Shown: one piece after another, positions 3,661-61,193 of the stretch
How positions within the stretch are numbered: position 1 is the stretch's first letter
Layout: each line of letters opens with the position of its first letter
Source: Candidatus Nomurabacteria bacterium
GTDB lineage: Bacteria > Patescibacteriota > Minisyncoccia > Phycocordibacterales > UBA9973
Reading direction: 5' to 3'
DNA: 64,000 nucleotides
Assembly (NCBI GenBank): GCA_026396015.1
Contig: JAPLXP010000003.1
Location: 176,974 to 240,973, forward strand
Program-made: the position numbers and the translations under genes
The notes under the pieces: model-generated
What the model saw: only the letters and a program-made list of their open reading frames with translations
What the model was told of the DNA's origin: nothing
Databases searched by the model: none

Positions 3661-4959
3661 ATGGATACAAACGATGCTAAATTAATGGAGAAGATAATCT
3701 CCCTCTGCAAGCGCCGAGGCTTTATTTATCAAGGGTCAGAGGTCTATGGAGGATTGGCTGGTACTTTTGACTACGGCCCACTAGGTGTAATGCTCAAGAA
3801 CAATATCAAGGATTCTTGGCGCAAGAAATTCGTATCGTCTCGACATGATATGTACGAGGTAGATGCTGCGATACTGATGAACTCTGCAGTCTGGCAGGCC
3901 TCTGGTCATGTAGATACTTTTACAGACCCACTAGTAGAATGTACAAAATGTAAAAAAAGATTCCGTGAAGATCAACTAGCAAAAAAAGGTGAGTGCGATG
4001 ATTGCGGAGGAGCTACTGGCGAGGCTCGTAATTTCAATATGATGTTCGCTACAAAAATCGGTGCTGTCGAGGATAGCGCTGCTACTGTATATCTACGCCC
4101 AGAGACAGCCCAGGGTATGTTTGTAAACTTCAAAAATATTGTAGATTCATTCCATCCAAAGCTACCATTTGGATTAGCACAAATAGGAAAGGCTTTCCGC
4201 AATGAGATAACTCCTCGTGATTTTATTTTCCGTGTTCGTGAATTCGAGCAGATGGAAATAGAGTATTTTGTACGACCTGATGATTGGGAAAAGTATTTCA
4301 ATTATTTTAAAGATGAGATGATTGAATGGATGGAGAGTATCGGTATCGATATGGCACGTCTGCATGAGCTAGAGGTAGAGAAGGGGGATCTGGCTCACTA
4401 CTCATCTCGCACAGTGGACTTTGAGTTTGATTTTGCATTTGGAAAGAAAGAGCTCTATGGACTAGCTTATCGTACAGATTTCGATCTGAAGAATCACAAG
4501 CTGGAATATATAGATGAGGAGGCAAAGGAGAAAATGACACCACATGTGATCGAGCCTACTTTTGGTGTAGATCGTACAGTGCTCGCACTGCTAACATCTG
4601 CATATATGGAGGATGAAAAGGAAGGTGAGGTTCGTAGTTATTTGAAATTCGCTCCGCATATGGCACCTGTAGTATGTGCAGTGTCTCCACTATTGAAGAA
4701 CAAGCCAGAACTCATTGAAAAAGCTCGCATAGTATATGGCACATTAAAGAATGAATTCGGACGAGTAATGTGGGATGACAATGGAAATATTGGAAAGAGA
4801 TATAGAAGACAAGATGAGATTGGTACACCATGGTGTATAGTCATAGACTTTGATACTCTGACTGATGATACAGTGACTATTCGTGATCGTGATACAGGTA
4901 CTCAAGAACGATTGCCGATATTAGAACTCGTAGAACATATTAAAGAAAAATTAGGATAA
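3661..4959 (+). CDS. glyQS: glycine--tRNA ligase (alpha2 type)
   Basis: Class II aaRS motifs; N-terminus FIYQGSEVYGGLAGTFDYGPLG and C-terminal anticodon-binding domain characteristic of GlyRS. Confidence 0.9.
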   Translation: MDTNDAKLMEKIISLCKRRGFIYQGSEVYGGLAGTFDYGPLGVMLKNNIKDSWRKKFVSSRHDMYEVDAAILMNSAVWQASGHVDTFTDPLVECTKCKKRFREDQLAKKGECDDCGGATGEARNFNMMFATKIGAVEDSAATVYLRPETAQGMFVNFKNIVDSFHPKLPFGLAQIGKAFRNEITPRDFIFRVREFEQMEIEYFVRPDDWEKYFNYFKDEMIEWMESIGIDMARLHELEVEKGDLAHYSSRTVDFEFDFAFGKKELYGLAYRTDFDLKNHKLEYIDEEAKEKMTPHVIEPTFGVDRTVLALLTSAYMEDEKEGEVRSYLKFAPHMAPVVCAVSPLLKNKPELIEKARIVYGTLKNEFGRVMWDDNGNIGKRYRRQDEIGTPWCIVIDFDTLTDDTVTIRDRDTGTQERLPILELVEHIKEKLG

Positions 4960-5026: not shown

Positions 5027-6298
5027 ATGATGAAAGCAAAAAAGAAAACACTAAAGAATGGATTGAGAGTCGTTACAGTACCAATGAAGGACAATCCGAC
5101 TGTTACAGTGCTCGTATTGGTAGGTACAGGAAGTGATTATGAATCAAAAGATATAAATGGTATTTCACATTTCCTTGAACATATGTGTTTTAAAGGGACT
5201 ACAAAACGCCCTACAGCACAGAGTATCTCGTATGAGCTTGATGCCCTAGGATCACAGTACAATGCTTTTACTGACCACGAGATGACTGGGTACTATGCCA
5301 AGGCAGATGCAAAGAAATTCAAACAAATTTTTGATGTAGTATCTGATGTTTATTTAAATTCTACATTTCCAGAAACTGAGATAGAAAAAGAGAAAGGTGT
5401 GATAATAGAGGAGATAAATATGTATGAGGATATGCCTCAGCGTCATGTTCAGGAACTCTTTGATAAGGCTCTTTATGGAGATCAGCCAGCAGGATGGGGA
5501 ATCGCTGGTCCAAAAGAAAACATAACAAAAATGAATCGTGATGATTTTGTTAAATACAAAAATGCACATTATGTAGCAGGAAGTACTGTGATAGTTGTTG
5601 CAGGAAATATTACTACAGAGCAAGTAGACGCCGAAGTTAAAAAATATTTTGGTGATGTATCTACTGGGGTAAAAGGTAAAAAGAAAAAAACTGTCGATAA
5701 ACAAAATCAACCAAACGCACTGTTGAAGTACAAAGAGACGGATCAGACTCATTTTGTTTTGGGCGTTCGTACATTTGATATGTTTGATGTACGCAATCCT
5801 ATATTGTCTGTGCTTTCTAGTATCCTTGGTATCGGTATGAGCTCTAGATTATTTATAAAGCTTCGCGAGGAAATGGGTGTTGCATATTATGTACGCTCTC
5901 ATAATGATGCCTCATTAGATCGTGGGGTATTCCAGATCTCTGCCGGTGTAAATAATGCTCGCACAAAAGAAGTAATCACTGAGATATTGAAAGAATGCAC
6001 AAAACTAAAAACTGAATTAGTAAGTGATATAGAATTGAAAAAAGTAAAATCATTCCTTTCTGGAAATATGAAGATGTCGCTAGAAGCCACGGATGATATT
6101 GCCAATTATTATGGTACACAAGAATTGCTGAGGGGGGAGATGAAGACTATCGATGAAAAGATAAAAGCTATAGAAAAAGTCACAGCAGCAGATATCAAGA
6201 AAATGGCTCAAAAGATTTTTGTGGACAAGAATCTGACTTTAGCTATGATTGGCCCAGATAAAGATGCTAAATCTTTTATTGATTTACTAAAATTTTAA
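5027..6298 (+). CDS. M16 family zinc peptidase (insulinase-like)
   Basis: Inverted zinc motif HFLEHMCFKG (HxxEH). Start moved to MMKAKKK (track 5000). Confidence 0.8.
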   Translation: MMKAKKKTLKNGLRVVTVPMKDNPTVTVLVLVGTGSDYESKDINGISHFLEHMCFKGTTKRPTAQSISYELDALGSQYNAFTDHEMTGYYAKADAKKFKQIFDVVSDVYLNSTFPETEIEKEKGVIIEEINMYEDMPQRHVQELFDKALYGDQPAGWGIAGPKENITKMNRDDFVKYKNAHYVAGSTVIVVAGNITTEQVDAEVKKYFGDVSTGVKGKKKKTVDKQNQPNALLKYKETDQTHFVLGVRTFDMFDVRNPILSVLSSILGIGMSSRLFIKLREEMGVAYYVRSHNDASLDRGVFQISAGVNNARTKEVITEILKECTKLKTELVSDIELKKVKSFLSGNMKMSLEATDDIANYYGTQELLRGEMKTIDEKIKAIEKVTAADIKKMAQKIFVDKNLTLAMIGPDKDAKSFIDLLKF

Positions 6299-7498: not shown

Positions 7499-8968
7499 AT
7501 GAACAAAAAACCATTTTATCTGACAACTACATTACCATACGTCAATGCAAACCTTCACATGGGGCATGCATTGGAATTTGTGCGTGCTGATGCGATAGTT
7601 CGATATAAGAAATTAAATAATTTTGATGTGTACTTCAATACCGGCACAGATGAGCACGGCATGAAGATTTATGAAAAAGCACAATCCCAAAACCTGACTG
7701 CGCAAGAATTTGTAGATCAGAGTTTTAAAAATTTCCGTGAATCTGTGAATATATTTGGATTAGTTGATGATATAAATTTTATCCGTACCACAGACAAAAA
7801 GCATGAGAAAATCGCGCAAAGCTTTTGGATGAAGTGTAAAGAAAATGGTTATATCTATAAAAAGAATTATCAGACTAGATACTGCGTAGGATGTGAATCA
7901 GAAAAGTCTGATAGTGAACTTGTAAATGGGGAATGTCCAGATCACCCTGGTCGCGCACTCGAGGTTATCGAGGAAGAAAATTACTTTTTCAAGTATAGTG
8001 AATTTACTGAAAAGCTTACAGATTTTTATAATTCAAATCCAAATTTTGTAATACCTGATTTTCGCTTTAACGAGATCAAGGCATTCGTATCAAGAGGTCT
8101 ACAAGACTTCTCTATATCACGTCTTGCTACCAAGATGCCATGGGGAATACCTGTGCCAGATGATAGTGAACATGTGATGTATGTATGGTTCGATGCACTG
8201 ACTAACTATATCTCGACTCTTGCAGAGGATGGAATAGAGACACTAGACCAATTAGTATCAAATGAAAAGTTCCAAAAATACTGGGTCAATGGTAATCCAA
8301 CACAATACTGCGGCAAAGATAATCTGCGTTTTCAGAGTGCTATGTGGCAATCAATGCTCATGGCTGCAGGAGTGCCGAATTCAAAACAAATAGTGATCAA
8401 TGGATTCATCACAGCTGAAGGTGGGTTAAAGATGTCCAAGACATTGGGTAATGTAGTGGACCCGCAGGATATAGTGGCACAATATGGCACTGATGCACTA
8501 CGCTACTTCCTACTACGTGAAGTGTCTTCATTTGAAGATTCACCTTTTACTATTGAACGATTCAAGGATTCCTATAATAGTGGATTGGCAAATGGACTTG
8601 GAAATTTGACGAGTCGTATTATGACATTATCTGAAAGATATATTAAAGATCCTGTTGAAATTTTAAATAAAGATTGGGTTGCTCCTGATTATATTGAGAA
8701 TATGGAAAAGTTTGATATTCAAAGAGCTTCTCAGATTGTTTGGCATTACATAGCAGAATCTGATAAAAAAATTCAGCAAGATGAACCTTTTAAGGTTGTT
8801 AAGATTGACGAAGCGAGAGGAGTTGAAATTATAAAATTTTTAGTTTCTGAGCTATGGAAAATAGCTAATATGCTAAAACCATTTTTACCTGAAACATCTC
8901 AAAAAATTAAAGACATTATTTTAGTAAATAAAAAACCAGAGGCTCCACTATTTTTGAGGAAGGATTAA
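7499..8968 (+). CDS. metG: methionine--tRNA ligase
   Basis: Class I HIGH (HMGH) and KMSKT motifs plus Zn-knuckle CVGCESE...CPDH. Confidence 0.9.
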   Translation: MNKKPFYLTTTLPYVNANLHMGHALEFVRADAIVRYKKLNNFDVYFNTGTDEHGMKIYEKAQSQNLTAQEFVDQSFKNFRESVNIFGLVDDINFIRTTDKKHEKIAQSFWMKCKENGYIYKKNYQTRYCVGCESEKSDSELVNGECPDHPGRALEVIEEENYFFKYSEFTEKLTDFYNSNPNFVIPDFRFNEIKAFVSRGLQDFSISRLATKMPWGIPVPDDSEHVMYVWFDALTNYISTLAEDGIETLDQLVSNEKFQKYWVNGNPTQYCGKDNLRFQSAMWQSMLMAAGVPNSKQIVINGFITAEGGLKMSKTLGNVVDPQDIVAQYGTDALRYFLLREVSSFEDSPFTIERFKDSYNSGLANGLGNLTSRIMTLSERYIKDPVEILNKDWVAPDYIENMEKFDIQRASQIVWHYIAESDKKIQQDEPFKVVKIDEARGVEIIKFLVSELWKIANMLKPFLPETSQKIKDIILVNKKPEAPLFLRKD

Positions 8969-11447: not shown

Positions 11448-11521
11448 GTAACTAGTTGCGAGTTTCTAATGACTAGAGTCTAGAAATTTCTAGAACCTAG
11501 AACCTAGAAACTATGCCCTAA
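11448..11521. repeat. CTAG-rich hairpin repeat, copy A (ssb leader)
   Basis: tctagaaatttctaga perfect palindrome plus ctagaacctagaacctagaaa. Shares ctagaacctag / ccctaa motifs with copies B, C and D. Confidence 0.6.
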
Positions 11522-11526
11522 TTTAT

Positions 11527-11989: not shown

Positions 11990-12062
11990 ATTAGTTTCTA
12001 GTTTCTAGTTTCTAGTGATAAATAAAATTTCCTAGAACCTAGTCCCTAGAACCTAGTCCCTA
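11990..12062. repeat. CTAG-rich hairpin repeat, copy B (rpsR leader)
   Basis: (tagtttc)x3 ... (ctagaacctagtcc)x2 ... ccctaa. 18-nt identity with the 16S insert (ctagaacctagtccctag). Confidence 0.6.
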
Positions 12063-12067
12063 ATTTT

Positions 12068-21497: not shown

Positions 21498-21601
21498 AGA
21501 TGCTTTGCAGTATACAACAAATAATGATTTTTTACAATGAGAACTTCCTCCCCTGCCAAGGGGAGGACTGAGGTGGGGTTTTGTGCTATAGTGTATGCAT
21601 A

Positions 21602-22945
21602 ATGTTTCGAAAGAGGAAAATCTATCTAGATTATGCATCTATGACACCTGTAGATAAAAAGGTGGTAAATCTCGTACACGAGGTGAGTAAAAAGGCTACC
21701 GACAATCCTAATGCCATCCACTCTGGTGGTGTTTTTGCTCGTAGTATTGTAGAAGATGCACGCAAATCGGTGGCAAAGTCTATCAATGCCCAGAGTGATG
21801 AGATATTCTTTTTAGGTTCAGGAACCGAGTCTGATGCATTAGCGATTTTAGGAGTAGTCAGAAATTTAAATAAAAAAGATTTCCTTCCTCATATCGTCAC
21901 TACAAATATAGAGCACAGTGCAGTACTTGAAAATTGTCGCTTACTTGAAGAACGCAGCGAAGCAGAAGTCACATATGTGAATGTAGAGGAGAATGGAATA
22001 GTAGATCCAAAAAAAATCCGTGAGGCGATAAAGGGGAACACTGTCCTCGTATCTGTGATGTATGCCAACAATGAGATAGGTACAATACAGCCTATTCGTG
22101 AAATTGCAAAAGAAATCAGACATTATAAGAAACACAACGGGAATATGCACGAATTATTCGCGCTTTACCCGCAAGCGGGCTCCGACGCGACTCATAATTC
22201 GTGCATATTCCCGTTGCTACATACCGATGCCGCACAAGCTATGAATTATCTAGACACTGACAACGTAGATAGACTAGGTGTAGATATGATGTCTTTTAAT
22301 AGTACAAAGATTTACGGACCCAAAGGTGTAGCTGTGCTCTATAAAAAAAGAGGGATAGAGTTATCGCCACTCTATGCTGGCGGTGGTCAGGAAGGTGGAC
22401 TACGCTCTGGCACAGAGAATGTGGCTGCGATAGCAGGCATGGCGTTAGCATTAAAAAATACAAACAGAATTAAAGATATAGAATATTCTCGTCTGACAAA
22501 ATTGCGCGATTATGCTATCGGTGAGATTCTCCGACTTTCTGAAAAATCAGGATACAAAATAATTTTAAATGGTGATATCGAGAATAGATTGCCGAATAAT
22601 ATAAATATCACAGTAGAAGGTATTTCTAGTGAACTCCTTGTGATAGAGCTCGATGCGAAAGGGGTAGCAGTATCGGAGCGCTCTGCATGTAGTGCAGATA
22701 GCGATGATGGCTCACATGTGATACGAGCCATCCGAAATGTTGATGAAAAAAATCTTCAAAATTCTTTAAAAATTTCGCCCGCTTTACCCGCGAGCGGGCT
22801 CCGACACGGATCAAAATTTTCAAATAATTTTTCCGATTTAGATTCCGTACGCATTACCCTCGGCAGAGAGACAAAAAAGTCTGATTTAGACTATCTAATT
22901 TCAACTCTTGAAAATATTTTAAATAAATATAAAAGTTGGAAATAA
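21602..22945 (+). CDS. cysteine desulfurase (class V aminotransferase, IscS/NifS-like) carrying two in-frame insertions
   Basis: IYLDYASMTPV N-terminus, PLP-lysine motif SFNSTKIYGPKG, active-site loop SERSACSAD. Start moved to MFRKRK. Confidence 0.85.
   Translation: MFRKRKIYLDYASMTPVDKKVVNLVHEVSKKATDNPNAIHSGGVFARSIVEDARKSVAKSINAQSDEIFFLGSGTESDALAILGVVRNLNKKDFLPHIVTTNIEHSAVLENCRLLEERSEAEVTYVNVEENGIVDPKKIREAIKGNTVLVSVMYANNEIGTIQPIREIAKEIRHYKKHNGNMHELFALYPQAGSDATHNSCIFPLLHTDAAQAMNYLDTDNVDRLGVDMMSFNSTKIYGPKGVAVLYKKRGIELSPLYAGGGQEGGLRSGTENVAAIAGMALALKNTNRIKDIEYSRLTKLRDYAIGEILRLSEKSGYKIILNGDIENRLPNNINITVEGISSELLVIELDAKGVAVSERSACSADSDDGSHVIRAIRNVDEKNLQNSLKISPALPASGLRHGSKFSNNFSDLDSVRITLGRETKKSDLDYLISTLENILNKYKSWK
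22141..22210. repeat. intragenic GC-rich palindromic element, copy 1
   Basis: 19-bp inverted repeat gaatatgcacgaattattc / gaataattcgtgcatattc flanking a GC-rich core cgctttacccgcaagcgggctccgac; lies within the CDS in frame. Confidence 0.6.
22772..22815. repeat. intragenic GC-rich palindromic element, copy 2
   Basis: Core cgctttacccgcgagcgggctccgac (1 mismatch to copy 1) flanked by aaaattt/aaaatttt; in frame near the C-terminus of the same CDS. Confidence 0.55.
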
Positions 22946-31926: not shown

Positions 31927-31990
31927 TAGTTCCTAGGTTTTAGTAAATTTACTAGAAACTAGAACCTAGTTACTAGTACCTAACCTAGAG
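31927..31990. repeat. CTAG-rich hairpin repeat, copy C
   Basis: cctaggttt TAGTAAATTTACTA gaaactagaacctagttactagtacctaacctaga; palindromic core; between topA start and dprA end. Confidence 0.55.
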
Positions 31991-32903: not shown

Positions 32904-32929
32904 AGTTTTATTTATTAATATTCTTTCGT

Positions 32930-33027
32930 GAAATAAGCTCTTCTCTAAACACACGCATATTTTTCTGTTGAAAAATTGCTCTGCTCGGCTACCCGCCTGC
33001 GCAAGTTGTTTTTCGAAGACTTATTTT
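32930..33027. mobile_element. MITE-like dispersed repeat, copy i (short variant)
   Basis: TIRs gaaataagctcttctc / gaagacttatttt; shares gagcagag...aatttttcaacagaaaaata / ttgcgcagg modules with copies ii-iv. Confidence 0.6.
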
Positions 33028-33079
33028 CACTACAGAAGATTCATTTGTATATTCTACCATTTTTTACTATACTTGAAAG

Positions 33080-34346: not shown

Positions 34347-35216
34347 ATGTCCAAGACGCGTGACATACTAACATCACCGCGCGTAGAGGAGATAAAGCGC
34401 ACAAAAAGAAAGGCGAATATTCGTCTTTCTGTTTTGTTTTTTGTATTGTTCATCGTACTGGTCGCCGGTCTTTCTTTTTTGTCTAATTACAAAAAGATGA
34501 CGATCAATATTATCGTTGTGAATGGCACTAGGATAATAAATCAGAGTGATGTTCAGGATTTTGTCGAAGGTAAGATGTCTGGAAAATATCTGTATATGTT
34601 CAATCGCCATAATGCCTTTATCTATCCTCACGATACTATATATGATGGACTACTGAAAAAGTTTACTCGTATAGAAAAATTATCTTTAAATGTAAAGAAT
34701 GTAAATACTCTAGAGATTTATATTAAAGAAAGATCAGGGTCATATATGTGGTGTGGGGACAAAGTTCCAGTAAATGAAGAAGAGAAAGGGGAGAATTGTT
34801 ATTTTATTAATGACGATGGATACATTTTTGATAATGCACCATACGTGTCTGGTAATTTGTATTTTAAATATTATTTACCTCTAGCAAATGCTGAAAATAT
34901 TTTAGGTAGTCAGATGCTATCTCCTGAAATATTCCATAATACTATTCGATTATCAGATACCATCAGAGAATCCGGACTAGATCCGATAATGATCACCGAA
35001 GATGCTGACTATTGGTATGTGCATTTGAATCACAGAGAGTCAGCTACATCTCCGTACATTATATTCAGAAAAGATTCTGATTTAGATAAGGTAGGAGAAG
35101 ATATAAAACTATCCATGAATCAAAAAGAATTCAGAGATGAAATAAATGGAAAATATGATACACTCCTGTACATCGATATGAGATTCAAAAATAAGGTTTT
35201 TTATAAGTTCCAGTAA
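34347..35216 (+). CDS. hypothetical bitopic membrane protein (possible FtsQ/DivIB-like POTRA protein)
   Basis: Cytoplasmic basic N-terminus, one TM, then IVVNGTRIINQSDVQDFVEG resembling a POTRA start; weak. Confidence 0.35.
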   Translation: MSKTRDILTSPRVEEIKRTKRKANIRLSVLFFVLFIVLVAGLSFLSNYKKMTINIIVVNGTRIINQSDVQDFVEGKMSGKYLYMFNRHNAFIYPHDTIYDGLLKKFTRIEKLSLNVKNVNTLEIYIKERSGSYMWCGDKVPVNEEEKGENCYFINDDGYIFDNAPYVSGNLYFKYYLPLANAENILGSQMLSPEIFHNTIRLSDTIRESGLDPIMITEDADYWYVHLNHRESATSPYIIFRKDSDLDKVGEDIKLSMNQKEFRDEINGKYDTLLYIDMRFKNKVFYKFQ

Positions 35217-35221
35217 AATTT

Positions 35222-35356
35222 AAAATAAGCTCTTCTCGAAAAGCACGAATATTTTTCTGGTGAAAAATTTCTCTGCTCGTCGCTCAAGAAAATAACATTC
35301 GTAAACTCATTTATTTTCTAAGCTCCTGCGCAAGACTTTTCTCGAAGACTTATTTT
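35222..35356. mobile_element. MITE-like dispersed repeat, copy ii
   Basis: Reverse complement is ~90% identical to copy iii; TIRs aaaataagctcttctcg / cgaagacttatttt. Confidence 0.65.
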
Positions 35357-35378
35357 AAATTTTACTTAACAATATATT

Positions 35379-36509
35379 ATGAACAATTTCTGGGAAAAAT
35401 TAAATAAACCATTCTTTGTATTGGCTCCGATGGCAGATGTCACTGATCCAGCTTTTCGTCGCATCATAGCAAAGTATGGCAAGCCCGATGTGACTTGGAC
35501 AGAATTCGTATCTGCTGATGGCCTTGCTCATCCTGTCGCTCGTGAGAAATTAATTCGCGATTTAGCATATACGGAAACAGAGCGTCCAATAGTGGCTCAA
35601 CTATTTTCTAGTCATCCAGAACAAATGCGTACTGCAGCTCGTATCGTGGCGGAGCTCGGCTATGATGGTATCGACATCAATATGGGATGCCCTGATAGAT
35701 CTATAGAAAAGCAGGGTGCAGGTGCTGCGATGATGAAGACTCCAGATATAGCAGGTGTAATAATTCAAGCAGCCAAGGATGGGATACGAGATGCAGGCAA
35801 GGATATTCCATTGTCTGTAAAAACTCGCGTAGGATACAACCAAGTTCAGATAGATGAGTGGATACCATTCCTACTTTCTCAAGATATCGCCACTCTGACT
35901 GTGCATGCGAGAACTCGAAAAGAATTGTCCTCTGTGCCTGCAAACTGGTCATATGTAAAAAAAGTTGTAGAGATACGAAATAAAATGGGAGTAAAAACCA
36001 GGATCATTGGCAATGGTGATGTGCACAATGTGGCTCATGGTAGGCAGCTTGCTCTTGAAACGGGCTGCGATGGCATCATGATCGGCCGCGCGATATTCGG
36101 CAATCCGTGGATGTTCGCTAATACTGTGGATGATACGAGCAAAAAAAATGTATCCGAAAAAAGTCTTGCGCAGCGCGACTGGCGCGAGCAGAGCAAATTT
36201 TTAGCAAAAAATTATGTGTGCTTTTTGAGGAAATATTTTTTGGGCGAGTCTAAAAAAGATAAAGATAGATATTGGCTAGAGAATAAGATAGATATACCAG
36301 TATCTGAGAGACTACGAGTACTAGTAGAGCATACAAAACTATACGAAGAACTACTGGGTGACATTAAAAGTTTCTCAATAATGAAAAAGCACTACAAGGC
36401 ATACTGCAATGGATTCACCGGTGCAAAGGAGCTGCGTATGCAATTGATGGATTCTAATAGTGCAGAGGAGGTAGAAAATATAATAGATACTTTTTTAAAA
36501 ACACTTTAA
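35379..36509 (+). CDS. tRNA-dihydrouridine synthase
   Basis: Dus TIM-barrel N-terminus FVLAPMADVTDPAFRRI and catalytic Cys region GIDINMGCP. Confidence 0.85.
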   Translation: MNNFWEKLNKPFFVLAPMADVTDPAFRRIIAKYGKPDVTWTEFVSADGLAHPVAREKLIRDLAYTETERPIVAQLFSSHPEQMRTAARIVAELGYDGIDINMGCPDRSIEKQGAGAAMMKTPDIAGVIIQAAKDGIRDAGKDIPLSVKTRVGYNQVQIDEWIPFLLSQDIATLTVHARTRKELSSVPANWSYVKKVVEIRNKMGVKTRIIGNGDVHNVAHGRQLALETGCDGIMIGRAIFGNPWMFANTVDDTSKKNVSEKSLAQRDWREQSKFLAKNYVCFLRKYFLGESKKDKDRYWLENKIDIPVSERLRVLVEHTKLYEELLGDIKSFSIMKKHYKAYCNGFTGAKELRMQLMDSNSAEEVENIIDTFLKTL

Positions 36510-39003: not shown

Positions 39004-39011
39004 AAGAATAA

Positions 39012-39052
39012 ATAAAAAGAGCCGCGACATTTGTCGCGGCTCTTTTTATTTA
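39012..39052. terminator. bidirectional terminator (aaagagccgcgacatttgtcgcggctcttt)
   Basis: Perfect 13-bp stem with flanking A/T runs between convergent genes. Confidence 0.75.
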
Positions 39053-40105
39053 TTCTTCGTCTTGTGGTTTCTCTATTGTGAGTGTCTCTACTTTTAAAGC
39101 TTCACCTGTGATACGCATCACGTCCTTGTCTACTTTTCGGAATTCATGATTAGACTTGTTGAAGTGGTTCACTGTGGTCTCTAATGCCGCACCCATCTTC
39201 TTGTGATACTCTTCGTACTTTTGTAGGTGTGTACCTAGTTCACCGACGCGCTTGATGATATCTTTTGCACCTTCCTCGATCTGCATAGCTTTTAGGCCCT
39301 GTAGGACTGTCTGTAGATAAGCTAGGAATGAAGTCGGCGATACGATGATGACTTTGTACTTACTAGCAGCTCTCTGTATTAGATTCTCTGTATCTTCACC
39401 GACGAGTGCACCGATTTTATTTACGAGTAAATCATAATAGATTGCCTCGTGAGGGATGAACATAAATGCGAATTCCATCGTACCATTCTCGGGTTGGATA
39501 TATTTTGAAGTTTCAGTAATACGATTCTTCAAATCATTTACAAAGACTTTTTCTAATCTGTCTTTCTCAGCCTTGTCACTCGTTTCGCTTATTCTGTTGT
39601 AATTTTCAAGCGAGAATTTTGAATCAATCGGGATTATTTTATCTTTTACAAATACCGCTGCATCCACTATCGTGCCGTCTGGAAAAGGGAATTGCATCTG
39701 ATATGAACCCGGTGGCATGATATTTTTCAAGAGTGTCTCGAGATAATATTCACCCAATATTCCACGCTGCTTTGGATTCTTCAATATGTCTTGGAGGCTC
39801 TGGAGCTGATCTGTGAATCCTACTACCTGCTTGTTAGTCTCGTCTAGTCTTGTGATCTTTTCTGTGATGTCTGAGATAATTCTTGAAGTCTCTGAAGATT
39901 GGTATCGCATAGACTGAGTCATCTCTTTTTGACTCTCGGTCAATTTATTATCAATAGTCCGAGTGAGCTCATTCATCTGAGAGAGGAGTAGCTGTAGTCC
40001 TGTGTCATCCTTTTTCTCTTCAGGTTTTGTATTTTTCTTTAGCAAAAGAAAAGCGATAATAATGCCCAATATAATTCCCAAAATAATTGTAATAGCTGTT
40101 GTCAT
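39050..40105 (-). CDS. rmuC: DNA recombination protein RmuC
   Basis: N-terminal TM plus coiled coil, conserved IPIDSKFSLENY and EFAFMFIPHEAIYYDLL motifs of the RmuC family. Confidence 0.75.
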   Translation of the reverse strand: MTTAITIILGIILGIIIAFLLLKKNTKPEEKKDDTGLQLLLSQMNELTRTIDNKLTESQKEMTQSMRYQSSETSRIISDITEKITRLDETNKQVVGFTDQLQSLQDILKNPKQRGILGEYYLETLLKNIMPPGSYQMQFPFPDGTIVDAAVFVKDKIIPIDSKFSLENYNRISETSDKAEKDRLEKVFVNDLKNRITETSKYIQPENGTMEFAFMFIPHEAIYYDLLVNKIGALVGEDTENLIQRAASKYKVIIVSPTSFLAYLQTVLQGLKAMQIEEGAKDIIKRVGELGTHLQKYEEYHKKMGAALETTVNHFNKSNHEFRKVDKDVMRITGEALKVETLTIEKPQDEE

Positions 40106-42212: not shown

Positions 42213-42261
42213 AATTTTCACCTTCCACAAACACAGAGCGATAAAATGCTTTTGTGAATCA

Positions 42262-42305
42262 CAAAAGAGCAGAATCAACGAAGTTGATTCTGCTCTTTCT
42301 TTTTG
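42262..42305 (+). terminator. rho-independent terminator (agagcagaatcaacgaagttgattctgctct)
   Basis: Perfect 13-bp stem plus T-run, preceded by conserved palindrome ttttgtgaatcacaaaa. Confidence 0.7.
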
Positions 42306-44261: not shown

Positions 44262-44316
44262 AATTTTCATTTGTACTTTCTAAAACACAGAGCAATAAAT
44301 TGCTTTTGTGATTCAC

Positions 44317-44362
44317 AAAAAAGCATAATCAACTTCGTTGATTATGCTTTTTCTTTTTTTTA
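44317..44362 (+). terminator. rho-independent terminator (gcataatcaacttcgttgattatgc + T-run)
   Basis: Paralogous to the helicase A terminator; preceded by ttttgtgattcacaaaa palindrome. Confidence 0.7.
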
Positions 44363-45946: not shown

Positions 45947-46002
45947 GCATTTATTTTATCACAATATGCGCCATCAAAATAGCTTCCATTAAAGTGTAAT
46001 TA

Positions 46003-46135
46003 AAATAGTCCTTGAAAAAAGTCTTGCGCAGGAACTTAGAAAATAAATGAGTTTACGAGTATTATTTTCTTGAGTGACGAGCAGAGAAATTTTCTACCAA
46101 GAAAATATTCGTGCTTTTTGAGAGGAGCTATTTTA
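46003..46135. mobile_element. MITE-like dispersed repeat, copy iii
   Basis: Full-length copy with modules aagtcttgcgcaggaacttagaaaataaatgagtttacgag...gagcagagaaattttctaccaagaaaatattcgtgctttttgagaggagctatttt. Confidence 0.65.
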
Positions 46136-46190
46136 ATGGAACTCACAATCCTCATTTCACTTTGAGGCTCGTTTTTGCTATACTTTATTT

Positions 46191-49686: not shown

Positions 49687-49736
49687 TGGGGCACATATTA
49701 AAAAAACCGCATAAAGCGGTTTTTTTAATATGTGCC
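49687..49736. terminator. perfect 25-bp-arm inverted repeat / bidirectional terminator that includes the 3' end of tRNA-Lys
   Basis: atggggcacatattaaaaaaaccgc ATAA gcggtttttttaatatgtgccccat; right arm overlaps the tRNA-Lys acceptor 3' strand. Confidence 0.7.
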
Positions 49737-49805
49737 CCATGGAGGGATCGAACCTCCGACCGTCTCCTTAAGAGGGAGCTGCTCTACCAGCTGAGCTAAC
49801 AGGGC
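49733..49805 (-). tRNA. tRNA-Lys (anticodon CTT)
   Basis: Acceptor gccctgt/atggggc (two GU pairs), D-arm gctc-agctggta-gagc, anticodon loop cuCUUaa, T-arm ggaggttcgatccctcc. One mismatch at the base of the anticodon stem. Confidence 0.7.
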
Positions 49806-49814
49806 ATAACGAAT

Positions 49815-50030
49815 TTAAAACATTAAACTAAACTATTTACCATGTATTCTGTTATTTACCAAAACAGCGTAACAAGGCTTATCTAAACTTAAAACATTAA
49901 ACTAAACTATTTACCATGTATTCTGTTATTTACCAAAACAGCGTAACAAGGCTTATCTAAACTTAAAACATTAAACTAAACTATTTACCATGTATTCTGT
50001 TATTTACCAAAACAGCTAACAGGGCGTAAA
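49815..50030. repeat. tandem direct repeat, 74-bp unit x ~3
   Basis: Unit ttaaaacattaaactaaactatttaccatgtattctgttatttaccaaaacagcgtaacaaggcttatctaaac at 49815, 49889, 49963. Last copy diverges to cagctaacagggc, which is identical to the tRNA-Lys 5' end. Confidence 0.8.
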
Positions 50031-50122
50031 AGTTAAAAAATATTTAACTCTGTCATTATTGCAGAAAAAGCTATTTTTGTAAATAGTGTTTGCTTTTCTT
50101 TGTAAAGGAGTATAATTAGTGT

Positions 50123-50625: not shown

Positions 50626-50881
50626 AGGGTTCACAGTCTGGTAAGTTATCCGGCTGTTTTAATTTCTTTGAAAAGTTAATAGGTTGGCTCAATCATCATT
50701 TCAATGATTGGGCAAAAAATGCAAATAATCAAAGCAAGCAAGTTAACCGTAAATCACTCGATAGTGATAGGTTAAGAAATGTCCGCATTATTCTTTCCGG
50801 AGTAATAGCGAGACAATAGTAAGTCAGTTTGGAAGAAATAAAATACTGTAAAGTATTCTTTATTTTGTTCCGTTCTATTTT

Positions 50882-52482
<1,601 letters not shown>

Positions 52483-52737
52483 ATTTGAAATTAATCGATG
52501 TATTCTATTTATAGATGCAAAGATCTTATTGAGTCGATATTGTATAGCTCAATTGACTATACAATTGCTGCGTACTACAGCATAGCGAAGTACTGACATC
52601 TGGGAAAGACCAGAATCAAAAAATACGAACGGAACAAAATAAAGAATATTTTCAAAACTTCTATTTGTTTGATTGATTAAAGCATTTATACTCTGTCTAT
52701 ATGACATGGTGCAACCTATTAATTCTAAATGAAACAA

Positions 52738-56223: not shown

Positions 56224-57702
56224 ATGAAAAATACAATGAACAAAACAATAGTATCAATATTTGCTATTTTAGCATTTGTTTTTATGGCACCTAATATATA
56301 CGCAGCTTCTGTATCTACTGCTGGGGTATCAAATATAACTCAGACTTCTGCTACAGTTAGTGGTACCTACTCTCTAGGTTCAAATTATGCCGAGGTATAT
56401 TTTGAATATGCTGATAACTCAGGATTCTACGGATCAAAGAGTACTACTCATTCTGTATATACTTCATCTGCATCAACATTTGCAAACATAACAGGTCTAA
56501 ATCCAAATACTACTTATTACTATCGATTAATCTCAGAAGGTAGTATGTATGAATCAGGTGGGACTCTATATTTCAAAACACTATCAAGTAATATTGACTT
56601 GCCATTATCTGCTATGACTGCCGGCGCGAAAGACATCAGTACGAATTCTGCAACTATCTCAGGAGTAATTTCAAATGCTCCATCTAGTGTATGGTTTGAG
56701 TATGGAAAGACAACATCACTAGGTAATACTCTGCCTGCTTCAACTACTACATTGGGTAACTCAACAACAGCTACTGCCAATCTTTCAAACCTAGAAGCAA
56801 ATACTACATATTATTACCGTGTGGGAGCTTTGAATTCAGTCGGTCAATCAAATGGAAGTATTTTATATTTCACAACTTTGAAAAATGGAGGTAGTACAGG
56901 TCCATGTGTGATTACTTCATTTACATCAAATACAAATTCTGTTTATGCTGGGTCACCTGTAACATTGTCATGGGTGACTACTGGTTGTACATATTTAAAC
57001 TTTGGTCAATCTGGTGGAGCATCATTCCCAATGTCAGGATCTGCTACCGTGACACTCAGCACTACTTCGACTTATACACTCTATGCATACGGTACGAATA
57101 ATAATGATACAAAATCTGTGACTATCACTGTCGTAAATAACGGAGAGGGAAACAATGGTGGATGGAATGGTGGTTGTGGAAATTATAACTGTAATCCACC
57201 ATGTAGTTATAGTTGCAACACTTGTAATTACAATTGTGGTGGAACCAACAATGATTGTTCTTGGTATGATTATTCCTGCAATAGAAATTTAAATAATTAT
57301 GAACAAATTAGAGGTATGGTTACTTGCTCGGTCTGTTCTTCTTCATATTATCCAGTAAATTATTTACCATCAAATAGTTACAATGGTTACGTGAATAGTT
57401 CTGCAAATCAAAACAATAATTTAAATTCAGGTGGTAAAAATGGTATATATGATGTGTCTGCCAATAGTAAATCACTATTAGGGAATAATGCTAGTGCATC
57501 AGATGTTTCAAATGTTGATTCACAAAATTCAAATATAGATTCTAGTAATCTTGCAGCTGGTGCTGGCTTTGGTCTAGTTTCATTTTTACCTAGTACTCTC
57601 GTAGGATGGTTACTCTTTATTATATTTATTTTGTTTATAATCTTTATCGCAAGAAAACTTACTGCAAAGAAAAACAATAATGCACACGGTCACGCACACT
57701 AA
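56224..57702 (+). CDS. surface protein with FN3-like repeats, Cys-rich module and C-terminal TM anchor with basic tail
   Basis: Signal peptide, repeated TATVSG...L.PNTTYYYR FN3-like units, Cys-rich CGNYNCNPPCSYSCNTCNYNCGG, C-terminal LPSTLVGWLLFIIFILFIIFIARKLTAKK. Confidence 0.5.
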   Translation: MKNTMNKTIVSIFAILAFVFMAPNIYAASVSTAGVSNITQTSATVSGTYSLGSNYAEVYFEYADNSGFYGSKSTTHSVYTSSASTFANITGLNPNTTYYYRLISEGSMYESGGTLYFKTLSSNIDLPLSAMTAGAKDISTNSATISGVISNAPSSVWFEYGKTTSLGNTLPASTTTLGNSTTATANLSNLEANTTYYYRVGALNSVGQSNGSILYFTTLKNGGSTGPCVITSFTSNTNSVYAGSPVTLSWVTTGCTYLNFGQSGGASFPMSGSATVTLSTTSTYTLYAYGTNNNDTKSVTITVVNNGEGNNGGWNGGCGNYNCNPPCSYSCNTCNYNCGGTNNDCSWYDYSCNRNLNNYEQIRGMVTCSVCSSSYYPVNYLPSNSYNGYVNSSANQNNNLNSGGKNGIYDVSANSKSLLGNNASASDVSNVDSQNSNIDSSNLAAGAGFGLVSFLPSTLVGWLLFIIFILFIIFIARKLTAKKNNNAHGHAH

Positions 57703-57976: not shown

Positions 57977-57999
57977 ATATTTAGTTTGTAGTCTGTATC

Positions 58000-58209
58000 G
58001 AAATAAAATAATTATTGAAAAAGTCTTGCGCAGGAGATTAGAAAATAAATGAGTTTACGAATATTATTTTCTTGATTGAGGGGATTAAATAAAAACTGCT
58101 TTTTATTTAATCCGGTTCGCGAAGCGAAATTGCCGATGCGAAGCAGGCAATAGGGAGAGATATTTTTCAACAGAAAAATATTCGTGCTTTTTGAAATAAG
58201 TTATTTTAT
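58000..58209. mobile_element. MITE-like dispersed repeat, copy iv (with ~75-nt nested insertion)
   Basis: Same modules as copy iii, interrupted at cttgattgag | gagagatat by gggattaaataaaaactgctttttatttaatccggttcgcgaagcgaaattgccgatgcgaagcaggcaatagg. Confidence 0.6.
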
Positions 58210-58491
58210 GTAGATAATTATTTGTTTATCTTGAAGATAATTATTTTATTTCGATGTAATTTTATTTTAATTAAAATATTTATTAAAAAAATAAAAAATA
58301 TTTTTTCTAAAAAAATTTAAAAATAAAAAGTTATCCACAGTTTTATTTAAAAAAGTATTGCACATATTTTTTATATATACGATAATGTAATTGTGAGTGT
58401 GATAAATTTTTTTATAAATTTATTTTATTTTAAAATTTTTTATAAGGTCGTATATCACACATCCTTTAAAAATTAATTTTTTTTTAAATAT

Positions 58492-58599
58492 ATGGCAGCA
58501 AAAAAGAAGGTAGTAAAAAAAGCAGTTAAAAAAGTTGTAAAGAAAGTTGCAAAGAAAGCAGTTAAGAAGGCTGTGAAGAAAGTTGCAAAGAAGAAGTAA
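58492..58599 (+). CDS. 35-aa lysine-rich basic peptide (histone H1-tail-like KKAVKK repeats)
   Basis: ATG 58492 to TAA 58597: MAAKKKVVKKAVKKVVKKVAKKAVKKAVKKVAKKK. Followed by terminator. Below the ORF-track size cutoff. Confidence 0.4.
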   Translation: MAAKKKVVKKAVKKVVKKVAKKAVKKAVKKVAKKK

Positions 58600-58703: not shown

Positions 58704-61193
58704 GTGTTAAAATGGGTTCCTATGAGTATTATACAGAGTATATTTGGGGATGAGAGTAGCGCCTTTGTAAAGAAGGCTAAAAAGACTGTTTCTGTTATCA
58801 ACTCCCTAGAAGAAAAAATCAAAAATTTAAAAGATGAAGAATTCAAAGATAAGACTATTGAGTTGAGAAGTCGCCTCCAGAAGGGTGAATCACTTGATGA
58901 TGTATTACCCGAAGCTTTTGCAGTGGTTCGTGAGGTTGCCTACCGTACAAAAGGTGAGCGTCACTATGATGTGCAGATGATCGGTGGATGTGCATTGCAA
59001 GCTGGAAATATTGCCGAGATGCGTACAGGTGAAGGTAAAACTTTGACTGCTACAACTCCCGCATATCTGAATGCACTTTCAAGTGAAGGTGTACATATCA
59101 TAACAGTGAATGATTATCTTTCTCGTCGTGATGCTGTGTGGATGGGTCCAATATTTTCTATGCTCGGCATGACTGTGGGTGTTGTGAATTCTCAGAACAC
59201 ATCATACATATACGATTCATCCCATATCGATAAAGTATCTGATTCAGAGAGTGATGCAGGATCATTTAAAGTTGAGTACGAATGTCTTCGTCCTTGCAGT
59301 AGAAAGGAAGCCTACGCCGCTGATATCACATACGGTACGAACAATGAATTCGGTTTCGATTTCCTTCGCGACAATTTAGCTCAACATGTAGACAATCTAG
59401 TTCAAAGGGGTCATCACTATGCTATCGTCGATGAGGTGGACTCTATCTTGATAGATGAATCACGTACTCCACTGATCATATCATCACCAGCAGAAGATTC
59501 AGAAGATCTTTATTATACTTTTGCTGATATTTCAAAACAATTAAAAAAAGAAGATGATTATACTGTGGACGAAAAACTCCGCGCGATATCTCTGACTGAT
59601 GCAGGTATTACTAATGCAGAAAATCTTTTAGGTATTTCTGATATTTATACAGAGAAGGGTATCAAGTATGTTCATCATCTAGAGACTGCAGTACGTGCAC
59701 GTGCATTATTTGAGAACAATAAAGACTACGTAGTAAAAGAAGGTGAGGTAATCATCGTTGATGCATTTACTGGACGTCTGCAGCCGGGCCGCCGATGGAG
59801 TGAAGGGTTGCATCAGGCTATCGAGGCAAAGGAAGGTGTAAAAATAGAAAAGGAGACTCGAGCAGTCGCTTCTATTACATTCCAAAACTATTTCCGTTTT
59901 TACAAGAAACTATCAGGTATGACTGGTACTGCTGATACATCAAAAGAAGAATTCCAAAAAGTTTACGGTATCGATGTTATTGTTGTACCTACACATAGAG
60001 ATGTAGCTCGTCTTGATAAACAAGATCTGATATATCAGACTGAAGAGGGTAAATATAAAGCTATTGTATCTAAAGTAAAAGAACTTCAGATCAAGGGTCA
60101 GCCAGTATTGATTGGTACTGTGTCTATCGAAAAGAACGAAGTACTATCTGCTTATCTAAAACAAGCCGGAGTGATTCATACAATCCTAAATGCCAAGAAC
60201 CATGAACACGAAGGTGAGATCATCGCCAACGCCGGTAGATATGGTGCGGTTACTGTAGCCACAAACATGGCAGGACGTGGAGTTGATATCAAGCTAGGAG
60301 GTGTACCTTACTCAAAAGAATCTTATGACAAGGTCCGTGATCTAGGTGGACTATTCGTTTTAGGTACTGAAAGACATGAAGCTCGTCGCATCGACAACCA
60401 GCTACGTGGACGATCTGGTCGTCAGGGTGACCCAGGTGAGACTCAATTCTACGTATCACTCGAAGACGACCTAATGCGTATCTTCGGTGGGGATCGCGTA
60501 AAGGCTATGATGGGAAGACTAGGAGTAGAGGAAGATCAGCCTATTCAGAACAGTATCATATCAAAAACACTTGAGAATGCTCAGGCTAAAATTGAAGGTT
60601 TCCATTTTGACTCTCGAAAACATACTCTAGAATACGATGATCTGATGAACCACCAGAGAAGTGTCGTATATGGACGCCGCAGAACTATGCTCACTGGTAA
60701 GACTGAAGATATTCAGATTTTCCTTGATGGAATAGTAGCTGAATACCCAGAATTGGCTGATGTTATAGTAGAAAAGAAGGCCAAGTCAGGTGAAGGTCCA
60801 TTTTATGAGACTATCCGCCGAATCGCATTATATACTACAGACAATCTATGGGTTGAACATCTAGAATCTATGGATCATACTCGATCTTCAGTAAACCTAC
60901 GTGCCTATGGCCAGAGAGATCCACTCATTGAATACAAGAAAGAGGGTCTGCGAATGTTTAAAGAAATGGAGGCAATGTTCAAAGAGCAAATTGCATCATT
61001 TGTCCGCACATTGAACATCACTGAGAACAATGGTGGTATCCAAGAAGTACCATCAACACCGACAATCATACTCTCAACTGACGATCAGAGTGGTTCTGTA
61101 CCGTCTATATCAGGGGATAAAGTAGGCCGCAATGATCTATGTCCATGTGGCTCTGGCAAGAAATATAAGAAGTGTCATGGTCAAGAAAAATAG
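58704..61193 (+). CDS. secA: preprotein translocase ATPase SecA
   Basis: DEAD-like motor (GEGKTL, DEVD), PPXD, C-terminal zinc finger CPCGSGKKYKKCHG. Confidence 0.9.
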   Translation: MLKWVPMSIIQSIFGDESSAFVKKAKKTVSVINSLEEKIKNLKDEEFKDKTIELRSRLQKGESLDDVLPEAFAVVREVAYRTKGERHYDVQMIGGCALQAGNIAEMRTGEGKTLTATTPAYLNALSSEGVHIITVNDYLSRRDAVWMGPIFSMLGMTVGVVNSQNTSYIYDSSHIDKVSDSESDAGSFKVEYECLRPCSRKEAYAADITYGTNNEFGFDFLRDNLAQHVDNLVQRGHHYAIVDEVDSILIDESRTPLIISSPAEDSEDLYYTFADISKQLKKEDDYTVDEKLRAISLTDAGITNAENLLGISDIYTEKGIKYVHHLETAVRARALFENNKDYVVKEGEVIIVDAFTGRLQPGRRWSEGLHQAIEAKEGVKIEKETRAVASITFQNYFRFYKKLSGMTGTADTSKEEFQKVYGIDVIVVPTHRDVARLDKQDLIYQTEEGKYKAIVSKVKELQIKGQPVLIGTVSIEKNEVLSAYLKQAGVIHTILNAKNHEHEGEIIANAGRYGAVTVATNMAGRGVDIKLGGVPYSKESYDKVRDLGGLFVLGTERHEARRIDNQLRGRSGRQGDPGETQFYVSLEDDLMRIFGGDRVKAMMGRLGVEEDQPIQNSIISKTLENAQAKIEGFHFDSRKHTLEYDDLMNHQRSVVYGRRRTMLTGKTEDIQIFLDGIVAEYPELADVIVEKKAKSGEGPFYETIRRIALYTTDNLWVEHLESMDHTRSSVNLRAYGQRDPLIEYKKEGLRMFKEMEAMFKEQIASFVRTLNITENNGGIQEVPSTPTIILSTDDQSGSVPSISGDKVGRNDLCPCGSGKKYKKCHGQEK

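Follow-up and report, generated by a model that had tools for sequence, protein, structure and literature searches.

A 64,000-nucleotide stretch of the metagenome-assembled genome of a Candidatus Nomurabacteria bacterium (assembly GCA_026396015.1, contig JAPLXP010000003.1, positions 176,974 to 240,973; hereafter the window) contains five copies of a short palindromic element. It belongs to a large undescribed family of ~100-150-nt hairpin elements in the small genomes of the Parcubacteria group. All copies share one fold, in which a stem of two helices, P1 (14 bp) and P1b (7 bp), closes a three-way junction with the hairpins P2 and P3. Copies come and go between relatives, recur nearly identical at unrelated loci and reside in frame in housekeeping genes. 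The element is probably a non-autonomous, structured and selfish palindromic insertion element, similar in behavior to the Rickettsia palindromic elements (RPEs), that spreads and is recognized as a folded single strand.

Element copies in the window

A covariance model (R1) was built from four short-form copies because MAFFT aligned the 5′ half incorrectly when long and short forms were combined; the long forms are recovered by the model as insertions. The E-values for the window copies range from 1e-18 to 1e-30. The copies, the gene that hosts one of them and an insertion nested in another are listed by position in the window.

32917..33046, minus strand, copy i: short form with a short P2 hairpin; model match 32930-33028, 93.4 bits, E = 2.7e-25
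35212..35366, minus strand, copy ii: long form with a long AU-rich P2 hairpin; model match 35222-35356, 75.3 bits
35379..36509, plus strand, dus (tRNA-dihydrouridine synthase), host of copy v
36142..36242, plus strand, copy v: short form, in frame in dus; 109.4 bits, E = 3e-30
45999..46137, plus strand, copy iii: long form; 71.7 bits
57999..58210, plus strand, copy iv: long form broken by a nested insertion; only the 3′ part (58126-58207) scores, 27.9 bits
58081..58155 (about), plus strand, nested GC-richer insertion in copy iv: ~75 nt, two extra hairpins

The copies are 98-212 nt long and have no open reading frame (ORF) of their own. The core pattern CGAGCAGAGMAAWTT-N13-TATNNGTG occurs four times in the window compared to 0.00 expected from shuffled sequence. 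An initial annotation of the window had described four copies, always intergenic, of an element resembling a MITE (miniature inverted-repeat transposable element). All four are present where it placed them, align over their whole length and are intergenic; the fifth, copy v, was missed and lies in frame within dus. The palindromes extend beyond the ends given initially, to the limits listed above. The annotated terminal inverted repeats were confirmed; they make up the outer helix of a longer stem. What had been called a short variant and a middle module are the short and long versions of P2, and the long middle hairpin is indeed absent from copy i. Copies ii and iii, described as reverse complements at ~90% identity, are about 87-87.6% identical over 133 nt.

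Copy i lies between the divergent genes dprA (start 32903) and serS (start 33080), and its ends were set by an outer helix, P0, and a G-U-A/G-A-A internal loop. The palindrome of copy ii, AGTAAAATTTAAAATAAG.../...CTTATTTTAAATTTTACT, takes in the TAA stop codon (35214-35216) of the upstream ftsQ-like gene, and its folding strand is antisense to both neighbor genes. Copy iii sits between a divergent exonuclease gene (start 45946, minus strand) and yqeY (start 46191). Three copies had been assigned to divergent or shared promoter regions; the dprA/serS and exonuclease/yqeY pairs are divergent, and the ftsQ-like/dus spacer separates genes on the same strand. Copy iv is located between a PhoD/purple-acid-phosphatase-like gene (56224-57702) and secA (58704-61193). 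Copy v was exposed by a repeat finder and then matched by the covariance model, and its helices are P1 (36142-36155/36229-36242), P1b (36158-36164/36220-36226), P2 (36166-36191) and P3 (36193-36217).

The nested insertion in copy iv, which the initial annotation had recognized, replaces the conserved CGAGCAG segment of the core. No second copy of this insert was found anywhere, and it was rejected as a repeat because it is unique. The 5′ arm of copy iv (57999-58016) has a second perfect 18-nt complementary partner at 58238-58255, ~30 nt past its own 3′ arm, pointing to duplication of the arm or to what remains of an adjacent copy. No sixth copy was detected in the window with the covariance-model filters off. 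The weak matches that appear under these settings (e.g., 49687-49739 and 39005-39056) are plain symmetric hairpins with equal scores on both strands and are not members of the family. An exact CTTGCGCAG match at 7698 is a chance match within a gene.

Fold of the element

The sequence of the P1/P1b stem varies from copy to copy with pairing kept, and most P1 positions exhibit all four Watson-Crick pair types. The base helix of P2 is UUGC/GCAG, closed by a conserved U.G pair. P2 also has an internal loop, GC(A)/GA, and its distal hairpin occurs in a short form (GNNC-GAC(U)G-GNNC), a medium form and a long, AU-rich form. P3 is CAAAUUUUC-AGCA-GAAAAUUAUG. The junction and tip, ~50 nt with the pattern CUUGC-GC-AG...CGA-GCAG-AG-[P3]-GUG, are nearly invariant among genomes. 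Immediately next to P1 there is an A at -1 in 72% and a G at +1 in 54% of copies, in the contexts cGUA/.../GAAg and gcGA/.../GAgc (slashes mark the limits of P1). Many copies have the outer helix P0 (4.77 of 8 positions paired compared to 4.07 in controls, ~8 standard deviations), and many have a G(U/A)A/GAR internal loop between P0 and P1. With P0 beyond P1, the whole element is therefore ~130-150 nt.

The fold was evaluated in a 101-copy alignment, which was fitted to the model and so is biased toward the structure; the margin is very large. Paired cells make up 94.5% of the alignment compared to 66.6% after shuffling, changes occur on both sides in 38 of 39 pairs, and the covariation score of 0.664 compares with at most 0.115 when the partners are slid. 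The mismatches in P1 and P1b are asymmetric: G.U outnumbers A.C by 156 to 31 (p = 3e-21), and purine-purine mismatches outnumber pyrimidine-pyrimidine mismatches by 162 to 47. The U.G pair that closes P2 is retained in 92 of the 101 copies. Such a pattern is not expected from a symmetric double-stranded site or a cruciform. The strand that reads AAAATAAGTCTTCGA...CTTGCGCAGG..., designated fwd, folds 2-11 kcal/mol better than its complement. The selected object is the fold of the fwd single strand, as RNA or as single-stranded DNA (ssDNA).

The long P2 module was considered as an independent nested element and rejected, being seen only within family members. Kink-turn and ribozyme cores (hammerhead, twister and others) did not fit the junction or loops as judged by eye, and inspection by eye gave no obvious covariation for loop-loop pairing between P2 and P3.

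Family size and host range

Scanning 185,579 species genomes for the exact core pattern gave at least 116 stretches, and 8-kb pieces around these matches were taken as loci. The loci contain 101 + 41 model matches; with the window and three relatives added, the family comprises at least 151 copies (130 short and 21 long forms) in at least 89 Parcubacteria-group genomes. Only the 8-kb pieces were covered, so per-genome copy numbers are minimum values, and GC-rich or diverged variants are under-sampled by an exact pattern. Single assembled genomes hold at least nine and at least seven copies. The hosts are named Nomura-, Kaiser-, Yonath-, Zambryski-, Giovannoni- and Vogelbacteria, Paceibacteria and others, and all of the stretches carry Patescibacteria-type names except for unclassified ‘bacterium’ records and one 3.4-kb contig labeled Bacteroidetes. 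Nomurabacteria fall within the Parcubacteria group, and NCBI treats Nomura- and Kaiserbacteria as candidate phyla in their own right. The four copies of the initial annotation thus understated the scale, leaving out the other genomes, the spread across several candidate phyla and the in-frame copies in essential genes.

Rfam gave no match at the gathering score for the window and 14 loci, and only chance-level matches for 35150-36300 at E-values up to 10. No copy was found in viral contigs or in phage and plasmid collections. The searchable literature contained nothing relevant on palindromic elements, MITEs, RNA motifs or selfish DNA in Patescibacteria, candidate phyla radiation (CPR) bacteria or Parcubacteria, and a 2024 review of prokaryotic MITEs makes no mention of these bacteria (PMC10969869).

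A GC-richer ‘CGAG’ subfamily was also distinguished, in which the unit continues 3′ with CGGGACTTATCCACAG (L051 ~6197-6215, L115 ~3821-3839 and L086 ~5145-5162). This extension holds a perfect DnaA-box consensus, TTATCCACA, and one-mismatch versions are present in several other members. No known RNA genes were found under the subfamily with its conserved flanks.

Gain, loss and spread among relatives

The gene order dprA, serS, ftsQ-like, dus is kept in the relatives L003, L004 and L005, and the initial annotation had proposed a check for empty sites. The outcome at the sites of copies i, ii and iii favors insertion and loss. The dprA/serS spacer is 34-39 nt in the three relatives compared to 176 nt in the window, and against the closest, L005 (~86% DNA identity; spacer 38 nt), copy i is a clean 143-nt insertion (32904-33046). 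At the ftsQ-like/dus site of copy ii, L003 and L004 have no element, and L005 has a long-form copy that is oppositely oriented and differs in its flanks. The exonuclease/yqeY site of copy iii is without the element in L122, L123 and L125, among them relatives at 95% and 81% protein identity, is occupied by a short-form copy in L055, and is filled by a member of a different palindrome family in L068. Conversely, a site that carries a copy in L068 is a 61-nt element-free spacer between the same genes in the window. These empty and filled sites indicate gain and loss, and some spacers collect different insertions.

Two occupants of the exonuclease/yqeY spacer are of separate interest. L122 (95% protein identity) has, in place of the element, a gene for a 117-residue PF05635 protein at 4554-4907; this family is the ‘23S rRNA intervening sequence protein’, a four-helix bundle. 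L123 (81%) has an unrelated palindrome with the arms CCCGTTAGAGAT and ATCTCTAACGGG.

Additional copies were found in the relatives with the covariance model, one of which supplies the topA stop codon in L004. Within one genome, copies from different contigs reach 96% identity over a comparison that includes the stems, and copy iii of the window shares 91% identity with a copy in another genome (L096), where the locus is non-homologous. Within near-identical pairs, the similarity extends as far as the palindrome ends and no further, and in some subfamilies it takes in P0. Decay is also evident: the dus genes of the closest relatives (84-86% identical) keep only a core-less remnant, and copy iv is disrupted. 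Decay of copies is thus tolerated.

In-frame copies in protein genes

A simple ORF caller applied to the loci placed 30 of the 151 copies within ORFs, 15 sense and 15 antisense. Host proteins were verified for 23 listed copies by Pfam (L036 by similarity), and these copies, 12 sense and 11 antisense, are in frame in 11 housekeeping protein families.

LigA: 5 copies (2 sense, 3 antisense), all in the zinc-finger loop
Dus: 6 copies (3 sense, 3 antisense), all in the same linker
MnmA: 3 copies, antisense
TsaD: 2 copies
MetK, ArgRS, class-V aminotransferase, FtsK, ComEC, PGM/PMM and UvrD: 1 copy each

LigA, Dus and ComEC have the element in both orientations at the same site, and the N-terminal region of ComEC carries it in six genomes, in both orientations. 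Through the palindromic arms, recombination could proceed in either orientation, a possible explanation of the flips at a single site. The dus gene of the window is translated straight through copy v as ...SEKSLAQRDWREQSKFLAKNYVCFLRKYF..., which lies within the linker that joins the TIM barrel to the C-terminal helical domain. Dus without an insert is 318-320 residues long, and many Patescibacteria Dus proteins have variable inserts at this one site, where the element-encoded peptide recurs in diverged forms. The Dus homologs P0007 and P0029 have an unrelated type of insert in the same linker (HPSN.E.PVSFF...ATQSR.SA.R.EC...), which is conserved between proteins that are 70% identical.

Third-codon-position identity was compared between the core and the flanks of the in-gene copies, in host genes whose silent sites are near saturation. 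The core values were 0.68-1.0 and the flank values were 0.32-0.50.

dus, window and L003: flanks 0.39, core 0.905
dus, window and L004: flanks 0.38-0.49, core 0.76 (peptide identity 0.38)
Dus, antisense pair: flanks 0.32-0.42, core 0.68
MnmA, antisense copies: flanks 0.34-0.48, core 0.85-0.95
LigA, same-orientation pairs: flanks 0.37-0.50, core 0.79-1.0
TsaD: flanks 0.40-0.47, core 0.78

The in-gene constraint acts on the nucleic acid and not on the peptide. The high third-position identity of the core means that the core is either selected in place, in any orientation to the mRNA, or much younger than the host gene. A younger core would mean re-insertion or overwriting by other copies.

Genomic neighborhood and orientation

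Between genes, the fwd strand is antisense to both neighbors in 49 copies and sense to both in 26, and the neighbors are convergent in 21 cases and divergent in 14; these counts take no account of shared ancestry. Stop codons that face the element are at most 20 nt away in 72 of 123 cases, and several copies contain the stop codon of the neighbor. Start codons are farther away (median 42-55 nt). The 5′-side neighbors (n = 96) represent 128 Pfam families with no gene association. No transposase, reverse transcriptase or homing nuclease stands out among these 96 neighboring proteins, no Y1 transposase is among them, and no transposase was found near the window copies. A terminator scan called no copy as an intrinsic terminator, and the GC-rich subfamilies are without a U tract. 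Promoter-like matches in three scanned stretches were near the shuffle expectation (within 1.4 standard deviations). A cis-regulatory RNA or riboswitch-like leader was rejected, with no fixed sense orientation and no recurrent gene class.

Nature and mobility of the element

These results support the initial annotation in general outline: the palindromic insertion element is dispersed and non-coding, occurs in both orientations and has no transposase nearby. Beyond this outline we infer actual movement of the copies, the nature of the intermediate and a trans-acting factor. The element would spread duplicatively and then be lost again. It would most likely be mobilized in trans by an enzyme that reads the folded single strand (ssDNA or RNA) through the conserved tip. 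Selection would leave copies where they do little harm, that is, just past stop codons, in spacers and in in-frame surface linkers, in either orientation, as RPEs behave.

Several observations weigh against a selfish, spreading element. The one alignable filled/empty junction, copy i compared to L005, gives only an ambiguous CAT, and the other junctions have diverged too far for an alignment with the window, including the exonuclease/yqeY spacers of the relatives at 95% and 81% protein identity. No direct repeats were found at the boundaries between near-identical copies, and no target motif was resolved. No transposase, reverse transcriptase or nuclease that could move the element was found among the 96 neighbors or in the surroundings of the window copies, and the phage, plasmid and viral contigs searched hold no copy. 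A conserved center with variable termini is unlike known transposase-driven elements. For selfish DNA, conservation of the ~50-nt core is also unusually deep, as it extends over several candidate phyla. The silent-site identity of the core fits purifying selection on resident copies as well as it fits re-insertion or gene conversion. Orientation between co-directional genes is non-random (49 antisense compared to 26 sense, p = 0.011, ignoring shared ancestry).

A broader proposal, which is possible rather than probable, concerns the three-way-junction tip. The tip might be a new functional nucleic-acid module under nucleotide-level selection in all resident copies, also those translated within essential genes in either orientation, as the recognition structure for a conserved Parcubacteria protein, or it might be the working part of a new folded-single-strand mobile element that lacks its own transposase and uses a housekeeping enzyme. 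In either case it would represent a class without a described counterpart that spans several candidate phyla.

The main rival explanation is a host-functional structured module, an RNA or ssDNA fold bound by a conserved Parcubacteria protein in, for example, RNA processing or stability or a DNA transaction, whose copies spread long ago and are now under purifying selection. This explanation is rather unlikely. It accounts for the excess of core over flank third-position identity in Dus, MnmA, LigA and TsaD, including the silent-site conservation between the dus copies of the window and L004 despite a peptide identity of 0.38, and for P2/P3 variants that the window and L003 dus copies share and the other four window copies lack. 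The conserved U.G pair, the G.A-type loops and the strong covariation are typical of functional RNAs, and the conservation is very deep. A host module does not account for the lack of a fixed orientation to transcription, with in-ORF copies antisense as often as sense, or for presence that differs between close relatives and copies that decay without visible consequence. It is also opposed by the lack of a gene association or Rfam match and by the exonuclease/yqeY spacer, which holds different palindromes or a gene depending on the lineage.

The strict MITE label of the initial annotation is not supported as stated. A classical MITE would be a deletion derivative of an insertion sequence (IS), moved by cut-and-paste by a transposase that binds the terminal inverted repeats and makes target-site duplications (TSDs). 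The element has the small size (below ~600 bp) and lack of coding capacity of a MITE, inverted-repeat ends, many dispersed copies in both orientations and presence/absence differences between relatives. Conserved terminal inverted repeats are lacking, the P1 pairs being the most variable part and the center the most conserved. No duplication was seen at the one alignable junction, with its ambiguous CAT, or at the boundaries between copies, and neither a parent IS nor a transposase was found among the 96 neighbors, near the window copies or on viral, phage or plasmid DNA. The mismatches, being strand-specific, indicate the fold of a single strand and not double-stranded terminal repeats. A classical MITE is accordingly an improbable description of the family. 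A cis-regulatory cassette, a promoter, operator or terminator shared by the flanking genes, would suit the three window copies upstream of genes, the nearby stop codons and AU-rich ends that could resemble two-way terminators, but is very improbable given the copies inside ORFs, the mixed orientation, the 128 neighboring Pfam families, promoter-like matches near the level of shuffled sequence, the lack of called terminators and the GC-rich subfamilies without a U tract. The regulatory or small-RNA cassette offered initially as an alternative to a MITE is a poor fit, with in-ORF copies in both orientations, no fixed orientation and no gene association.

Comparison with known systems

Among known systems, the RPE-like reading of the element has its closest precedent in Rickettsia, where elements of ~100-150 bp with no known transposase reside in a reduced genome, in spacers and, with unusual frequency, in frame in unrelated housekeeping genes, with the host protein left intact (PMC10969869). 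Like RPE-1 to RPE-10, the Parcubacteria-group element is a ~100-150-bp palindromic repeat with many copies and in-frame residence in unrelated genes of a reduced genome, and several distinct palindrome families coexist in one genome. It differs from RPEs in spanning several candidate phyla rather than one genus of another phylum group, in its three-way-junction tip with ~50 nearly invariant nt and hypervariable stems, in its in-frame residence in both orientations at the same host site and in its strand-specific fold signature. The hosts are Parcubacteria, so the element is an RPE analogue by behavior and not a member of that family.

The enterobacterial repetitive intergenic consensus (ERIC), or intergenic repeat unit (IRU), is a ~127-bp imperfect palindrome found in either orientation near gene ends, with size variants produced by internal insertions at fixed positions. 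ERIC is thought to act as a folded RNA when transcribed, and no transposase is known for it. The Parcubacteria-group element shares the size variants by internal insertion, the occurrence in either orientation near gene ends and the lack of a known transposase. Unlike it, ERIC is extragenic as a rule, is limited to related gamma-proteobacterial families and forms a simple long hairpin instead of a three-way junction.

Repetitive extragenic palindromes (REPs) are 20-40-nt hairpins with a conserved 5′ tetranucleotide that are clustered and extragenic in genomes with a gene for a REP-associated tyrosine (Y1) transposase (RAYT). REPs, the bacterial interspersed mosaic elements (BIMEs) and IS200/IS605 are plausible mechanistic analogues: a folded single strand is recognized in trans, there is no target duplication and the strands are asymmetric. 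The Parcubacteria-group element differs in being 100-150 nt long and branched, with no Y1 transposase among the 96 neighbors. The attC sites of integrons are conserved in stem structure, work as one particular folded strand and lie in cassette arrays next to an integrase. The element resembles attC in keeping stem structure rather than sequence and in using one folded strand, and differs in that the attC boxes are conserved at the base with a variable tip, the opposite of the arrangement here.

Bacterial MITEs have conserved terminal repeats, a TSD (TA for Correia elements) and usually an identifiable parent IS (PMC10969869). Similar to the Correia elements (CREE/NEMIS) and other MITEs, the Parcubacteria-group element is small, non-coding and dispersed, has inverted-repeat ends, affects neighboring genes and is polymorphic in insertion. 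In contrast, none of their three defining features, conserved termini, TSDs and a parent IS, was found for it.

Significance

CPR bacteria have some of the smallest and most streamlined genomes known, in which mobile DNA is usually said to be scarce. A family present in at least 89 of them, and at least two further families in the window, indicate that CPR genomes carry persistent palindromic insertion elements. These elements alter the spacers, provide stop codons and lengthen essential enzymes such as DNA ligase, Dus, MnmA and TsaD by 30-40 residues, which explains part of the otherwise unexplained ‘insertions’ in the proteins of these organisms. An assembly made independently from short reads of the same organism has a contig (Logan contig L001) that starts at position 35299 of the window, inside copy ii; repeats of the element explain such contig breaks and appear to fragment the assemblies of these genomes. 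The element also offers markers for strain typing. A nearly invariant branched tip, covarying stems and a strand-specific fold without an associated gene make the movement of Rickettsia-type elements, a long-standing question, testable in a second, very large clade.

Other repeats in the window

A second palindromic family has the core GCGCUUUACC-[hairpin]-GCUCCGACGCGA between long perfect arms and occurs at 22135-22216 of the window (ORF 21581-22945), at 4140-4225 of L068 and at 1649-1682 of L048. The window copy is in frame in a class-V aminotransferase whose Pfam match is split. The L068 copy fills the exonuclease/yqeY spacer, and the L048 copy shares a ComEC ORF with a copy of the main family. 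A third dispersed repeat consists of CTAGAACCTAG-type units at 11481-11524, 12023-12066, 31943-31986 and 52013-52127. The last of these is a 115-nt palindromic copy inside the 16S rRNA gene (50880-52485), which is 1606 nt long compared to the 1533 positions of the Rfam model.

An 83-nt repeat with a hairpin is present at 42222-42304 and 44276-44358 (84% identical), directly after each of two neighboring helicase genes. Three tandem 74-nt units (49812-50033) abut the tRNA-Lys gene (49732-49805), and a tRNA-like segment appears again at 50005-50049, which looks like repeated partial duplication of a tRNA as at integration sites. The Pfam domains of the secA product match in split stretches, suggesting further insertions in the SecA protein. 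Upstream of secA, at 58490-58590, there is a run of 12-nt lysine-rich coding-like repeats (AAAGAAGGTAGTAAAAAAAGCAGTTAAAAAAGTTGT...).

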